From positions 1-16,592 of IMG/VR virus record IMGVR_UViG_2531839664_000015: a stretch of 16,592 bases of DNA. One strand, written 5' to 3'. The stretch's first letter is position 1; each line of letters opens with the position of its first letter. The DNA comes from a virus (lineage: Duplodnaviria; Heunggongvirae; Uroviricota; Caudoviricetes). The notes beneath the pieces were generated by a model. The model did no database searches, was not told the DNA's origin, and worked only from the letters and a program-made list of their open reading frames with translations. The position numbers and the translations under genes are program-made. Below, piece after piece: positions 9,603-15,130 of this stretch.

Positions 9603-9693
9603 GAGTCGCTCCATAAAACTGAACGCCAAAAGTTTAATAATCAAAACCAAAGAAAGTCAAGAAACAAAACCATCTGTGTTTTAAAATCAAAAC
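9603..9693. promoter_or_regulatory. divergent immunity control region (OR-like) with 18-bp palindrome TGTTTT-N6-AAAACA at 9677-9694
   Basis: 91-bp AT-rich intergenic region between divergent cro-like and cI-like genes; a perfect inverted repeat overlaps the cI start; a second partial palindrome AAAACT-N10-AGTTT lies at about 9616-9636. Confidence 0.5.
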
Positions 9694-10332
9694 ATGAACA
9701 AGCAAACAATATCTGAACGCATAACCCAACGTATGCATGCGCTAAACTTGAAAGGCAAAGACCTTGTCAATGCCACTGGCGCATCAAAAGGCTCCGTAAG
9801 TCAATGGATGAACGGTGGAGGAGCGCCGTCCTCGCGTTACATAAGTTCACTGGCAAAGATATTGAAAGTAAACGAAAATTGGCTTCTTAATGGAGGAGAG
9901 TTAAATACAGGTGATTCGCTTGATCTATCTTTACCGCCGATAAAAACGGTTCCGCTACTATCACTTCAGCAGGCAGCAAGCTGGAGTGATTATATGAAAA
10001 ATTCCTCAATAACCTCTTGTGTGCAGCTTGTCGGAGAAATCCCGGCCAATACCTTTGCTGTTGTTCTAGAGAGTGACAGTATGTCGACATCTGGTGGTGG
10101 AGTTTCCATCCCAAATGGTTCAACAGTTTTTGTTGATCCCGATCGAATCGTACAACCAGGAAATATTGTCCTTGCCTTACCCAAAGGGACCACAACGCCT
10201 GTCATTCGCAAACTGGAGATAGAAGGGCCGGATATTCTTTTAGTCCCCACGAATCCTCGCTACCCTTCAATTATGCTGGATGATCTATCTTGCATATTGG
10301 GAGTATGCTTTAAAATTCAACAAGATATTTAA
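9694..10332 (+). CDS. CI-like phage repressor (N-terminal helix-turn-helix plus C-terminal S24 LexA-like peptidase domain)
   Basis: 212 aa; helix-turn-helix LKGKDLVNATGASKGSVSQW; S24 motifs (AVVLESDSMS with the Ser nucleophile, downstream Lys in IRKLE). Confidence 0.9.
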   Translation: MNKQTISERITQRMHALNLKGKDLVNATGASKGSVSQWMNGGGAPSSRYISSLAKILKVNENWLLNGGELNTGDSLDLSLPPIKTVPLLSLQQAASWSDYMKNSSITSCVQLVGEIPANTFAVVLESDSMSTSGGGVSIPNGSTVFVDPDRIVQPGNIVLALPKGTTTPVIRKLEIEGPDILLVPTNPRYPSIMLDDLSCILGVCFKIQQDI

Positions 10333-10396
10333 CCAACCTCATCTATTTGATTAACTGTATGCCATCGTAGTGATGGCGTAACAGCTGCCTGCTTAA

Positions 10397-10445
10397 AATG
10401 TTTTGATAAAAAAACATTGACCTTAAATGTTCGTTTTTCTAAACT
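10397..10445 (+). promoter_or_regulatory. putative PL-like promoter (-35 TTGACC, 17-bp spacer, -10 TAAACT) overlapped by a second copy of the palindrome (10399-10416)
   Basis: Sigma-70-like hexamers at 10417-10422 and 10440-10445; the palindrome is identical in half-sites and spacing to the one at 9677-9694; a third AATGTT lies in the spacer. Confidence 0.4.
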
Positions 10446-10624
10446 TCATTCATTCCCTCACCCCGCCCCACAGAATGCAGGGCAATACTTCGAGTTACCA
10501 GGCAGTGGTCAGGGGTTAAGTAGCCAGCCCGAGGCGTAAGAACATGACGGCAGGGTTCAACTTTAATAACTATGCAGCAGGTTTTTGTTCCGCTACCCCG
10601 GCGTTAAGGGGAAATGAGGTCAAC

Positions 10625-10777
10625 ATGGATACGCTCAATCTTGGCAACAACGAATCTCTGGTATGTGGCGTGTTCCCCAACCAGGACGGTACGTTCACCG
10701 CGATGACGTATACCAAAAGCAAAACGTTTAAAACTGAAGCTGGCGCGCGTCGCTGGTTAGCCAGAAACACTGACTGA
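10625..10777 (+). CDS. small hypothetical protein (50 aa)
   Basis: ATG with GAGG at 5-nt spacing; stop overlaps the next ORF (TGATG). The 77-aa track ORF has no RBS at its first ATG. Confidence 0.5.
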   Translation: MDTLNLGNNESLVCGVFPNQDGTFTAMTYTKSKTFKTEAGARRWLARNTD

Positions 10778-10788
10778 TGAGGTTGACG

Positions 10789-11427
10789 ATGGAATTTAAA
10801 GATTTACCTCCTTCAATCCAGGAGATTGCAGCACACACACTTCGTCATCGTCTGAACGAACTTGAATTGGAATCGGTAACGAAAAAAGACACTGATAATA
10901 TGGCTCGTAATGTGCGCGATGCGTTTACCGGATTGTATTTCTGTGCGTCTATAAATAAACACGACTCAGAGAGTGTGGCAAATAAAATTGCAGAAACGAC
11001 AGCGCAAAACATCAATACGAAACCAACGGAAGAAGAAATTGATCAGTTTGCTCATGATGCTGGTTTAAAAAACAAGAAAGAAAAATCGCCATATGCGGGG
11101 AACATGTTTGTTTATGACAATCTCATCAGAATTCGTGGCGAAATTCCGGCGGAATACCTGGCAAGAGTCCATCAGGCATTGCTTAAAAATTTGGAAACAG
11201 AATTATTTGATGGCAACACTAACGGTTTCTTCATGGTATCAGGCCTTGAGAAAGACTGGGATGCAGAAAAACGCTGGAATGTTGCTACATGGTTATTCAG
11301 TAACAGAGCCGCTGCACTGGAAGCTTCGGCATGTATTTGCGGCCTGTTCTTAACAGACCACAAATATAATCTGGATGTGTACAGTTATATTTACGCTGAA
11401 CACGGTCCACTCTGGATTGACTGGTAA
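10789..11427 (+). CDS. hypothetical protein (212 aa), unknown function; cargo next to the immunity region
   Basis: ATG with GAGG at 6-nt spacing (the track start at 10777 has no RBS); translationally coupled to the 50-aa ORF; no recognisable motifs. Confidence 0.6.
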   Translation: MEFKDLPPSIQEIAAHTLRHRLNELELESVTKKDTDNMARNVRDAFTGLYFCASINKHDSESVANKIAETTAQNINTKPTEEEIDQFAHDAGLKNKKEKSPYAGNMFVYDNLIRIRGEIPAEYLARVHQALLKNLETELFDGNTNGFFMVSGLEKDWDAEKRWNVATWLFSNRAAALEASACICGLFLTDHKYNLDVYSYIYAEHGPLWIDW

Positions 11428-11637
11428 TTATAAGGAAACACCAGCAGGGCCGCGGCGACCAACAGAACGATTAAAATCAATAATGCCATTATAAAGGACA
11501 TTATTTAATTTATCGTCGAATGCTGATTCTGTGAGCCTCAACTCTGAATGAGTTTTTAATAACCCTGATTGCCTGAGTTGATTTACCAGGCATTCAATCT
11601 GTTTTTCAATAAGCGGATTTCTTTTTTTGTTTGGCAT
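11428..11637 (-). CDS. hypothetical small protein (69 aa), opposite in orientation to the surrounding operon
   Basis: Internal ATG with GGAGGA at 5-nt spacing; converges tail-to-tail with the 212-aa gene (stops adjacent). Confidence 0.45.
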   Translation of the reverse strand: MPNKKRNPLIEKQIECLVNQLRQSGLLKTHSELRLTESAFDDKLNNVLYNGIIDFNRSVGRRGPAGVSL

Positions 11638-12201
11638 TTTATCCTCCATTGAGGTTCTGGGTTAAAAATGGAGACCAACACGCTGTCACGTGTGGTCGTG
11701 CGCCGGACACGGATAAGAATCCGGTACTGACAGTTTACTGAAAGGATATTTCCCTGAAAAGTCAGTGCATAACGCGAAAGCGTACGGCGAAGCTCTTTCC
11801 CTTAGAAGGCTTGTCGTTAGATTTCTTCGAACGTGCGCTTCCGGTTGTGGCACTCCGCGAAATGGCGCGGCGGTAAGTATGGCGGGGTTATTCCTTCCCC
11901 ATTGAGGACACCGGGTTGTCAGGTTGACCATACGCTTAAGTGACAACCCCGCTGCAACGCCCTCTGTTATCAATTTTCTGGTGACGTTTGGCGGTATCAG
12001 TTTTACTCCGTGGCTGCTCTGCCGCCCTTTTTAAAGTGAATTTTGTGATGCGGTGAATGCGGCTAAGCGCACGCGGAACAGTTAAAACCAAAAACAGTGT
12101 TATGGGTGGATTCTCTGTATCCGGCGTTAATTGTTAACTGGTTAACGTCACCTGGAGGCACCAGGCACTGCATCACAAAATTCATTGTTGAGGACGCGAT
12201 A

Positions 12202-12390
12202 ATGGAAACGTTATTACCAAACGTTAATACGTCTGAAGGTTGTTTTGATATTGGTGTTCTGCTCAGTAACCGGGAGTTTACTGAAGATGCCATTAACATG
12301 AGGAAATATGAGCCTTATCTGCTCAATGATAATTCCATACTTTCCCGAATTGCTCTTCTTGAACTTGGTATTTTCGGAGAACGTCAATGA
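12202..12390 (+). CDS. small hypothetical protein (62 aa)
   Basis: ATG at 12202 with GAGGA at 7-nt spacing, shorter than the track ORF. Confidence 0.45.
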   Translation: METLLPNVNTSEGCFDIGVLLSNREFTEDAINMRKYEPYLLNDNSILSRIALLELGIFGERQ

Positions 12391-12575
12391 CTTCAGCATT
12401 TGCACTGATGATGACGGTTTTTCTTATAACGGGTGAATCACAGAATGTGATTACCGGAATTTATGCCAGTAAAGAATCCTGCCTCCAGGCAAGAGACGAG
12501 CAAAAAATTTCTGGTGAATGCCTCCCGGTAAAAAAAGTATCGCTGTACCTGAATAACGAAACACCGGCTGGATAA
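12387..12575 (+). CDS. small hypothetical protein (62 aa) with hydrophobic N-terminus
   Basis: ATGA overlap with the preceding ORF (translational coupling); N-terminal MTSAFALMMTVFLITG is signal or transmembrane-like. Confidence 0.45.
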   Translation: MTSAFALMMTVFLITGESQNVITGIYASKESCLQARDEQKISGECLPVKKVSLYLNNETPAG

Positions 12576-12667: not shown

Positions 12668-15130
12668 ATGAGCACTGATAAAGAAGAATTTGCGCTATAT
12701 TGCGAAGCAAAAAATGACAAAGTCAGAAAACGTCTGGGAATTAAAGGTGGTTTTTACTGGACTACAGCAAAAAAATTATCTGTTGCCATCTCCCGCTGCA
12801 TTACCGCAATGGATGACAACGATTATGATGAAGACGACTTTAAAAAACCCGTTCGCGTCCATTTACCCGTTGTGAATGACCTTCCACCTGAAGGCGTGTT
12901 TGATACCGAATTCTGCAACCGATACGAAAAAGGCGGGGAAGATGGCATTACAATGGTATTTATCGCGCCCTCTCCCTCCGTGCAGGAGAAACCAGCCAGT
13001 ACTGACAATACCAACGTCAACGGCGAAGACATGACGGAGATTGAGGAGAATATGCTCCTGCCGGTTTCTGGTCAGGAGCTGCCCATTCGCTGGCTTGCGC
13101 AACACGGCAGCGAAAAACCAGTAACGCACGTTGCACGGGAAGAACTTCAGGCATTACATATAGCACGGGCGGAAGAACTGCCGGCTGTTACTGCCCTGGC
13201 CATTTCTCACAAAACAAAGCTGCTCGACCCGCTGGAGATTCGCGACCTTCACAAACTGGTACGCGACACTGACAAAGTTTTCCCTAATCCCGGTAATTCA
13301 GACCTGGGACTGATAACTGCTTTTTTCGAGGCATACCTGGACGCTGACTACACTGATCGGGGTCTGCTGACAAAAGAGTGGATGAAAGGAAATCGTGTTT
13401 CGCGTATCACCCGTACGGCTTCCGGTGCAAATGCCGGTGGCGGGAACAAAACCGATCGCAATCCGAATTTAGTACACACCTTCGATACGCTGGATGTGGA
13501 GATTGCAGCAGCCACACTTCCGATGGATTTTAATATTTATGAAATTCCGGGCAGCGTTTATCGTCGCGCAAAAGAAATCGTCCTGAAAAGAGAAAGTCCG
13601 TTCAAAGAATGGTCCGCAGCACTTCGCGCAACCCCGGGTATTCTGGACTATTCCCGCGCCGCTATTTTTGCACTTATCCGGAGCGCTCACCCTGAGTTTT
13701 ATCACTACCCGGGACGCCTTCAGGGGTATATCAACGCCTACTTAACGGAGACTGATCACGAGAACCCCAGCAAGGAAACTCTCACTGCTGCACGACATAC
13801 ACCGGAAAAAGATATCCTGGAAGAAGTTAACCGCGAACTGTCTGCTAAGCAGGAAACAGAAGAAGAAGAAAATGATGAAGAAAAACCGCAACCATCTTGC
13901 GCAATGGCAGATGAACAGGCAACGGCTGAAACAGTGGAACCGGATGCAACTGAACATCATCAGGACACGCAGCCGCTGGATGCTCAGTCACAGGTAAATT
14001 CTGTTGATGCGAAATATCAGAAACTGCGGGCAGAACTCCATGAAGCCCGGAAAAACATTCCGCCCCAAAATCCTGTCGATGCAGACAAATTACTGGCTGC
14101 CTCTCGCGGAGAATTTGTTGAAGGGATTAGCGACCCGAATGATCCGAAATGGATTAAGGGGATCCAGACCCGCGATTCTGTGTACCAGAACCAGCAAGAA
14201 ACGGAACAGAACGACCAGAAAGCGGAACAAAACAGCCCAAATGCGTTACAAAACGAGCCAGAAACGAAACAGCCTGAACCAGTGGCGCAACAGGAAGTGG
14301 AAAAAGTCTGCACCGCCTGCGGTCAGACCGGCGGCGGCAACTGCCCTGATTGTGGCGCGGTGATGGGCGACGCAACATACCAGGAAACCTTCGATGACAA
14401 GAACCTGGTTGAAGTTCAGGAAGACGATTCGGAGAAAATGGAAGGCGCTGAACATCCACACAAGGAGAATGCTGGCAGCGCTCAGGACCACGCCAGCGAT
14501 AGTGAAACTGGCGAGACGGCAGATCCCTTAATTACGGTGAACGGTCATCACGTTATCACATCCACCAGCAGGACGTGTGACCATCTAATGATCGACCTTG
14601 AAACCATGGGAAAAAATCCTGATGCCCCGATTATCTCAATAGGTGCAATATTTTTCGATCCGCAAACCGGAGATATGGGACCGGAATTTAGTAAGACTAT
14701 CGATCTGGAAACTGCTGGCGGAGTCATTGATCGGGACACCATTAAATGGTGGCTTAAGCAATCACGCGAAGCGCAATCTGCCATTATGACCGATGAAATC
14801 CCGTTAGATGATGCACTGTTACAATTGCGGGAATTTATCGACGAAAACTCCGGTGAATTTTTTGTTCAGGTCTGGGGAAATGGAGCCAACTTCGACAACA
14901 CGATTTTGCGCCGTTCATACGAACGGCAGGGGATCCCCTGCCCGTGGCGTTACTACAACGATCGCGATGTGCGCACAATCGTTGAGCTGGGGAAAGCCAT
15001 AGACTTCGATGCCAGAACGGCTATTCCATTCGAAGGTGAGCGCCATAATGCACTTGATGACGCCCGTTACCAGGCAAAATACGTTTCAGTTATCTGGCAA
15101 AAACTGATCCCGAGTCAGGCTGATTCTTAA
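12668..15130 (+). CDS. RecE-like (exodeoxyribonuclease VIII-like) protein with C-terminal DEDDh/DnaQ-like 3'-5' exonuclease domain
   Basis: 820 aa; ATG with an AATGAGG ribosome-binding site. N-terminal and central segments resemble the non-catalytic region of Rac RecE as recalled; acidic linker; CxxC...CxxC zinc-ribbon ([16 protein letters not shown]). The C-terminal ~190 aa carry the three DEDDh motifs DLETMG, GNGANFD and HNALDDA. Confidence 0.8.

Follow-up and report, generated by a model that had tools for sequence, protein, structure and literature searches.

A putative polymorphic cassette of a C-terminal domain and a convergent small gene in the predicted dicBF-type early operon of an Escherichia coli O157-type prophage

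Results

Genes at the locus

We analyzed a 16,592-nucleotide (nt) stretch of viral DNA (IMG/VR record IMGVR_UViG_2531839664_000015, here called the window), focusing on two open reading frames (ORFs) of 50 and 212 amino acids (aa) that lie beyond a phage repressor gene and on the convergent 69-aa gene that follows them. The whole window is a lambdoid prophage of the E. coli O157 type. E. coli O157:H7 chromosomes are 100% identical to it over positions 10340 to 11700, and RefSeq annotates the same three genes at this identical locus: a 50-aa "DUF1391 family protein," a 212-aa hypothetical protein, and, on the opposite strand, a 69-aa hypothetical protein. An initial annotation, made from the sequence alone, had placed the first two ORFs in the slot after cI and suggested that they are exclusion or defense cargo. 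The ORFs themselves are borne out by the identical RefSeq annotation and by a Shine-Dalgarno (SD) sequence, GAGG, before each. They are not coupled by the TGATG overlap that had been described, which stems from an ATG at position 10777 that would give a protein of 216 aa. Because this codon is not conserved (homology with a divergent prophage begins at 10781) and the PHROG profile, PGAP, and all homologs start at MEFKDLP, the true spacing between the two ORFs is 11 nt.

Comparison with annotated families and with K-12 makes it very likely that the interval comprises the operator/promoter and first two genes of a repressor-controlled early-left operon of the dicBF type found in the Qin prophage. 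The predicted order is OL/PL (left operator and early-left promoter), a conserved leader, the ydfA homolog, the 212-aa gene, a structured pre-DicF RNA, DicF, DicB, a YdfD homolog, and a RecE-like gene (Table 1). The ydfA homolog, DicF, DicB, and YdfD follow the repressor gene in this order, all on the same strand, and the matches to DUF1391, DicF, DicB, and DUF1482 all exceed curated thresholds. The 50-aa ORF matches PF07151 with 103.8 bits (cut-off 27.3; E = 3.6e-30) over profile positions 1 to 47 of 48 and is 88% identical in amino acid sequence to K-12 YdfA. Nucleotide identity with K-12 Qin is 88% across ydfA and 93% over the stretch that starts at 11697, spans dicF, and extends into dicB. 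Between ydfA and 11697, where Qin has ydfB and ydfC, the window is unrelated to Qin, and K-12 YdfB and YdfC show no similarity to the 212-aa protein. In one related prophage (L007), only ydfC is replaced; in another (L010), the corresponding cassette comes after ydfC. The operon unit extends past the end of the flagged ORFs at 11427, with the convergent 69-aa gene, DicF, DicB, and later genes belonging to the same arrangement.

DicF and DicB, two products of this operon type, reportedly influence cell division, metabolism, and resistance to phages. In K-12, the dicBF operon is transcribed as a single polycistronic message from dicBp, upstream of ydfA; DicA represses it 22-fold, and it is weakly expressed in stationary phase (PMC10448788). 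Several O157:H7 prophages carry this operon, with the nonconserved genes left unassigned (PMC5069750). The operon type is present several times in O157:H7 genomes, and published comparisons have so far left its variable genes uncharacterized and described as nonconserved.

Table 1 Positions of the features at the locus and the evidence for each
Feature	Position	Strand	Evidence or remarks
Operator copy, cI/cro intergenic region (TGTTTTAAAATCAAAACA)	9677-9694		Exact TGTTTT-N6-AAAACA
CI-type repressor, 212 aa	9694-10332	+	Pfam Peptidase_S24 (8.2e-13), HTH_3; phrog_4 transcriptional repressor (4.8e-40)
OL-type operator (TGTTTTGATAAAAAAACA), abutting -35	10399-10416		Exact TGTTTT-N6-AAAACA
Candidate early-left promoter, TTGACC-17-TAAACT	10417-10445	+	Sigma-70-like hexamers
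Conserved 5' leader of the operon	10459-10624	+	89-95% identical in prophages with different repressors
YdfA/YdaF homolog, 50 aa (DUF1391)	10625-10777	+	GAGG 5 nt upstream; Pfam PF07151
212-aa protein gene	10789-11427	+	ATG at 10789; GAGG 6 nt upstream
Conserved helical N-domain (residues ~1-59)	10789-10965	+	On ~45 small prophage proteins with unrelated C termini; also phrog_1363, 9419, 6937, 33007
C-domain (residues ~100-212), beta-beta-alpha-beta-beta-alpha-beta	11086-11427	+	Structure model; dN/dS; remote relatives only in Salmonella prophages
Convergent 69-aa gene	11428-11637	-	phrog_4274 (1.4e-51); SD GGAGGA; stop abuts the 212-aa gene stop (11425-11427)
Leader L1, ribosome-binding region of the convergent small gene	11638-11696	-	Common to cassette types A, B, D, F despite differing ORF bodies
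Conserved structured pre-DicF region	11697-11975	+	93% identical to K-12 Qin; RNAalifold consensus
DicF small RNA with terminator	11976-12027	+	Rfam RF00039, 75 bits (gathering score 48); terminator-like site 12010-12025
DicB	12202-12390	+	Pfam PF05358 (6.4e-37)
YdfD homolog (DUF1482)	12387-12575	+	Pfam PF07358 (2.9e-15)

The predicted early-left promoter

The gene upstream of the interval had been taken for a repressor, and its helix-turn-helix (HTH) and Peptidase_S24 domains agree; a P22-Cro-like gene and a YdaT-like gene (Pfam) are oriented divergently from it. The palindrome TGTTTT-N6-AAAACA occurs at exactly 2 sites in the 16.6 kb (0.00 expected from 200 shuffles), both confined to the immunity region. 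Because one lies between cI and cro and the other abuts the -35 hexamer of the flagged promoter, this promoter is a predicted early-left promoter of the OL/PL type (PL or dicBp type) and not the head of a rexAB-type slot. The sigma-70-like promoter named in the initial annotation is present; of the palindrome said to overlap it, the exact copy abuts the -35, and it is an imperfect copy at 10426-10444 that overlaps the spacer and the -10. Another, weaker copy covers the cro-side promoter's own -10. Homology between the window and prophages with different repressors sets in at 10449-10459, just past the -10 of the flagged promoter, as would be expected if the immunity module ended where transcription is predicted to start.

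Since the promoter carries the repressor's predicted operator, the genes behind it are expected to be off in a lysogen. Genes of the rexAB type would lie between the cI stop and OL/PL, and the 66 nt from that stop (10332) to the operator (10399) contain no ORF. The placement after cI therefore holds in that the two ORFs lie beside the immunity region and its repressor-type operator and promoter; it fails in that they lie beyond OL/PL. In the related prophage L007, which is integrated at ompW, the true post-repressor slot is occupied by relBE (L007 3654-4132), upstream of the ydfA promoter region; after it come ydfA, ydfB, and the 212-aa gene, then the convergent 69-aa gene, dicB, and the remaining operon genes. 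This comparison of slot occupants goes against the flagged ORFs as post-repressor cargo, and the relBE pair exemplifies post-repressor cargo in phages of this group. Although nothing is unusual about the regulatory setting, it corrects how the flagged genes are read: they are expected to be expressed at induction, not in the lysogen.

The structured pre-DicF region

Upstream of DicF, the conserved region folds into a helix of ~21 base pairs (alignment columns 78 to 100 paired with 140 to 162) around a loop of ~40 nt that is hypervariable between prophages, consistent with the RNase III processing site described in K-12. An 83%-identical copy of this region lies beside a homologous gene pair in a Salmonella prophage (L004 9268-9461), where Rfam finds no DicF; this copy suggests a DicF-independent function.

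The 212-aa protein

Homology and structure searches separate the two flagged ORFs, both of which had been described as uncharacterized and lacking recognizable motifs. No function is assigned to either, and the description stands for the 212-aa protein, which matches nothing in Pfam, NCBIfam, PADLOC, or the PDB; it does not stand for the 50-aa ORF, a member of DUF1391/YdfA. PDB sequence-profile searches with the full 212-aa family and with its N-domain returned nothing significant, and the protein matches phrog_2151, which has no assigned function. Profile searches gave neither ORF the identity of an N-like antiterminator or a recombination protein, in line with the initial annotation; for N-type antiterminators, Pfam, PHROGs, and NCBIfam gave no match to either ORF, and an arginine-rich motif and nut (boxA/boxB) sites in the 10446-10624 leader were not searched for. 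No SieB family match to the 212-aa or 50-aa protein was found in Pfam or PHROGs, and neither was compared with SieB directly. Models of defense families match none of the 50-aa, 212-aa, and 69-aa proteins, contrary to the suggested role as defense cargo: PADLOC-DB 2.0 gave nothing for the 212-aa and 69-aa proteins and only a chance-level AbiEi match (E = 0.047) for the 50-aa ORF. Literature searches on the protein accessions, "Ybl81," and DUF1391 found nothing functional.

Relatives of the 212-aa protein are narrowly distributed. Its ~150 near relatives are almost all from Escherichia, with a few from Salmonella. A profile search of 1.84 billion representatives returned only 52 matches, all of them small prophage proteins; most share only residues 1 to 55/90, and two Salmonella proteins share only residues ~75/100 to 194. 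There is no full-length homolog of the 212-aa protein, and no homolog of the 69-aa protein, in 50,697 deposited phage records, and two scans of a species-representative genome collection found no relative of the C-domain or of the 69-aa protein.

A linker joins the conserved N-domain to the rare C-domain, whose invariant positions include Y109, G117, P120, Y123, FDG (140 to 142), N145, G146, W168, and E178. A first AlphaFold2 model built on 23 sequences was poor, with a predicted local distance difference test score (pLDDT) of 64; a second, with the Salmonella relatives added, reached 71. Block-mean pLDDT in the C-domain is mostly 73 to 89, with a single block at 64, as far as about residue 190; it falls to 31 to 36 over residues 201 to 212. 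A Foldseek search of the model against BFVD found nothing at E <= 0.001; its top matches, labeled "cysteine protease," were rejected, as the C-domains of E. coli and Salmonella share no conserved Cys or His.

The ratio of nonsynonymous to synonymous substitution rates (dN/dS) is 0.19 for the 212-aa gene overall and 0.13 to 0.15 for the C-domain, at synonymous divergence (dS) up to 0.7. These values show the 212-aa ORF to be a real gene under purifying selection; the same applies to the 69-aa gene (dN/dS, 0.23 to 0.29), and the poor conservation that might have marked the ORFs as nonfunctional is not seen.

The convergent 69-aa gene

The 69-aa gene is a close companion of the C-domain. Among complete E. 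coli genomes that match any part of the segment made up of the C-domain and the small gene, 594/599 carry both. A convergent homolog lies within 60 nt at 77/83 C-domain loci from IMG/VR and Salmonella contigs; in the remaining 6, the small gene is deleted and a 211-aa gene inserted (3 loci), the C-domain is truncated (1 locus), or the locus is cut by the contig end (2 loci).

Several side observations concern the same gene. Frameshifts in type A loci (13/83) fall just after MPNKK, in an A7 run at 11617-11623 (codons 4 to 6 of the 69-aa gene), and could reflect homopolymer sequencing error, decay, or slippage-type switching. The 211-aa gene that replaces the 69-aa gene in three loci (L296 4511-5146, minus strand) carries CxxC...CxxC motifs, and the conserved MEDK leader stays in place; it represents a further type of cargo in this antisense slot. 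Two candidate promoters for the small gene were set aside, one (GTGACA-17-TTTAAC) not conserved in type F and the other (TTTTCA-17-TAAACT), inside a conserved region, weak.

A probable polymorphic cassette

We surveyed 211 genes carrying the N-domain and located the convergent small ORF by anchoring on its conserved leader. The comparison indicates that the 212-aa protein is modular and that its C-terminal part and the convergent small gene probably move as one cassette, of which there are at least six classes. In the window, the cassette runs from ~10940/11000 to 11636. The exchanged block has its left breakpoint inside the large ORF (10937-10996) and its right breakpoint at the start codon of the small gene (11625-11636) or at 11697.

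Each class of C terminus has its own kind of small gene. Class A is paired with the 69-aa gene (68 intact, 13 frameshifted in the A7 run, 2 absent); class B, with an 80-aa, zinc-ribbon-like gene (5/5); class C, with a 63-aa gene (1/1); and class D, with a 64-aa gene (18/19). The small gene of class E encodes 91 aa in 22 loci and 73 aa in 2 and is missing from 49; that of class F encodes 99 aa, with 4 copies intact, 4 truncated, and 21 loci having none. Among the 211 genes surveyed, each small-gene class is confined to a single C-terminal class. All of the small genes begin at one of two conserved leaders, TGGAGGATAAAATG in classes A, B, D, and F or CAGGAGGGTGAAATG in classes C and E. Pfam, NCBIfam, PADLOC, and PHROGs assigned no function to the 69-aa protein or to the classes other than A, and the cassette architecture appears not to have been described before.

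A Salmonella counterpart

In Salmonella prophages, homologs of the C-domain (27 to 34% identity) have a different N terminus, with or without an XRE HTH, and sit after int, repressor, and cox rather than after ydfA. A convergent 64-aa gene overlaps the 3' end of the C-domain gene there, and its product and the 69-aa protein share 42% identity (E = 1e-11). The same Salmonella prophage that carries the pre-DicF copy also has a C4-type antisense RNA (L004 10918-11005, plus strand; Rfam, 74 bits) beside genes with Phage_ASH and Derepression domains; it is a mosaic of P1/P7/P4-style immunity elements with lambdoid-type early genes.

Other features of the prophage

Downstream of YdfD, an 820-aa RecE-like protein (12668-15130, plus strand) has an Exonuc_VIII region at its N terminus and an Rv2179c-like 3'-5' exoribonuclease (DEDD) domain at its C terminus; PGAP names a relative "3'-5' exonuclease," and a separate Rv2179c-like gene lies downstream in the Salmonella loci. 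Between DicF and dicB, a subthreshold Rfam match to STnc100 was found at 12039-12179 on the plus strand (34.5 bits; gathering score, 47; E = 2.5e-5). Elsewhere, the window carries a hok/sok-type toxin-antisense module on the minus strand (4568-4742, with an ORF at 4418-4630; Rfam sok, 113.5 bits), with a RefSeq Hok/Gef protein at the equivalent place, and two prophage-borne tRNA genes, also on the minus strand (25-98 and 202-274), annotated as tRNA-Arg and tRNA-Ile in the identical RefSeq locus.

Discussion

Our analysis points to a dicBF-type early operon, a cassette exchanged within it, and a cognate pair encoded by the cassette; as a combined account, this is the explanation that we favor on balance. 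For its last component, we tentatively propose that the C-domain and the 69-aa protein may be cognate interacting partners, the small gene being an antisense-embedded accessory gene with a sieB/esc-like logic of self-escape. From the operon layout itself, CI bound at the TGTTTT-N6-AAAACA sites should hold the operon off in the lysogen, and CI cleavage should fire it, with the 50-aa and 212-aa proteins among the first made. In the tentative model, the small gene would be expressed from its own signals while PL is off, providing an accessory or exclusion-type function. Read-through from PL would silence the small gene once the resident phage goes lytic, and the matching C-domain of the early protein would bind or neutralize the small protein at the lytic switch. 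In favor of a cognate pair, Salmonella keeps the pairing behind a different N terminus, and lambda N/sieB and Rac ydaF/sieB share the convergent arrangement. A broader version, which we regard as doubtful at present, is that lambdoid and P2-like prophages of E. coli and Salmonella might carry an early-operon polymorphic two-component system with at least six specificities, in which a small protein made in the lysogen from an antisense gene at the sieB position is neutralized by the matching C-domain of an early-expressed protein. If true, this would be a modular exclusion-plus-self-escape (kin-recognition) system deciding which related phages grow in a lysogen. In either form, ~0.9 kb of dark matter becomes a testable cognate-pair hypothesis, with several natural specificities available for cross-tests.

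Several observations weigh against the favored explanation. The promoter matches only 9 of 12 hexamer positions, and 5 such sites were found versus 5.8 expected in shuffles; because they are no commoner than in shuffled sequence, the hexamers alone prove nothing. The structure model is of moderate quality (pLDDT, 71) and matched only generic ferredoxin-, ACT-, or SUI1-like folds. No convincing promoter was found for the small gene, and the 69-aa protein gave no BLASTP alignment with lambda SieB at E <= 100. Others bear on the pairing itself and speak at the same time for its main rival, in which the 212-aa protein is a stand-alone early lytic effector of host takeover or counterdefense, the 69-aa gene is an unrelated moron, and the pairing is mere linkage. 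Adjacent segments can covary trivially, through linkage alone, and linkage may suffice here because the cassette classes have no common sequence in which recombination could take place. Many class E and F loci are without a small gene. The 69-aa gene is frameshifted in 13/83 type A loci and deleted in 3 loci with an intact 212-aa-type gene and is therefore not indispensable; roughly one-fifth of type A loci have a defective copy. The Salmonella locus retains the 83%-identical pre-DicF piece beside the gene pair, so the Salmonella and E. coli contexts are not fully independent. The rival also draws on the position of the gene at the start of an early operon, among host-manipulating genes (DicF, DicB, Kil-type), and on its modular N-domain with variable C termini, which is typical of accessory early genes. 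What it explains less well is that Salmonella retains the pairing at 27 to 42% protein identity, where both the N-terminal fusion and the upstream gene differ; that both genes are kept in nearly all of the E. coli genomes and C-domain loci counted above; and that the breakpoints enclose exactly the C-terminal part and the small ORF body. We therefore hold this early-effector reading to be possible, though not probable.

That the two plus-strand ORFs are themselves lysogen-expressed superinfection-exclusion or abortive-infection cargo of the rexAB or sieB kind, as initially suggested, is unlikely. They do adjoin the immunity region; the K-12 operon has the weak stationary-phase expression described above; and DicB of this same operon type is reported to protect K-12 cells that express it against some phages (PMC6832061). 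Against such a defense role in the lysogen, the promoter upstream carries the repressor's predicted operator, so that the ORFs should be off; PADLOC found no match; the slot directly after the repressor has no ORF in the window and contains relBE in L007; and the first ORF encodes YdfA, which is conserved and hence no variable cargo.

Less likely again is that the C-domain is a toxin and the small protein its antidote, together forming a toxin-antitoxin-like or polymorphic toxin/immunity module. The layout resembles the exchangeable C-terminal and immunity cassettes of Rhs and CdiA proteins, with a conserved N terminus, a variable C terminus, a covarying small gene, and breakpoints inside the large ORF, but no toxin, trafficking, or immunity domain was recognized, and the small gene is convergent rather than cotranscribed. 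It is also frameshifted or deleted in ~20% of loci while the large gene is intact, and the folds matched by the C-domain are small alpha/beta domains of regulatory or binding type. Finally, that the ORFs are nonfunctional remnants of a decaying prophage might seem to fit the many defective prophages among the carriers and the 50,697 phage records devoid of full-length copies, but this pseudogene reading is excluded by the selection on both genes (dN/dS as above, at dS up to 0.7), by ORFs intact in hundreds of genomes with strong Shine-Dalgarno sequences on both, and by the conserved Salmonella pair.

The locus can be set beside four known systems. It shares its layout with the Qin operon (dicBp-ydfA-ydfB-ydfC-dicF-dicB-ydfD-ydfE): both have a promoter beside the repressor gene, under repressor control in Qin and predicted to be so in the window, and ydfA comes first. 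The nucleotide sequences are 93% identical over the pre-dicF region, DicF, and the 5' part of dicB; the DicB and YdfD homologs that follow have diverged. Qin uses DicA, whereas the repressor in the window is a CI-type HTH-S24 protein with its own predicted operators, and the window has the 212-aa gene and the convergent 69-aa gene in place of ydfB and ydfC. Lambda rexAB likewise adjoins cI, the classical site of lysogen-expressed exclusion genes, but lies between cI and OL and is cotranscribed with cI, whereas the flagged genes lie beyond the operator and promoter. With Rhs proteins and CdiA-CT/CdiI cassettes, the locus shares a conserved N-terminal part, an exchangeable C-terminal domain, a covarying adjacent small gene, and a breakpoint inside the large ORF. 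It differs in that the 212-aa protein is a small cytoplasmic protein with no recognizable toxin or trafficking domain, and in that the partner is not a co-oriented downstream immunity gene: it is convergent, has its own conserved leader, is often defective, and lies inside a phage early operon.

The fourth system is sieB of lambda, Rac, and P22, which is likewise embedded antisense in the PL operon, convergent with a promoter-proximal PL gene, the 3' ends abutting or overlapping. A sieB-type slot had been suggested for the two flagged ORFs, but they hold the position of the first PL genes; it is the unflagged 69-aa gene, outside the interval first delimited, that holds the position and orientation of sieB. 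In sequence, the 69-aa protein does not resemble SieB, which is more than twice its size, and the covariation of the partner's C-terminal domain with the small gene is a feature not described for sieB. The cognate-pair proposal also draws on P22, where the antisense RNA sas switches sieB translation and Esc gives a phage a way around SieB (PMC12197685). The geometry of the gene pairs is the same throughout: lambda N (35037-35438, minus strand) meets sieB (34482-35036, plus strand) stop to stop, ydaF (DUF1391) of Rac meets sieB with a 4-nt overlap, and in the window position 11427 of the 212-aa gene meets position 11428 of the 69-aa gene.

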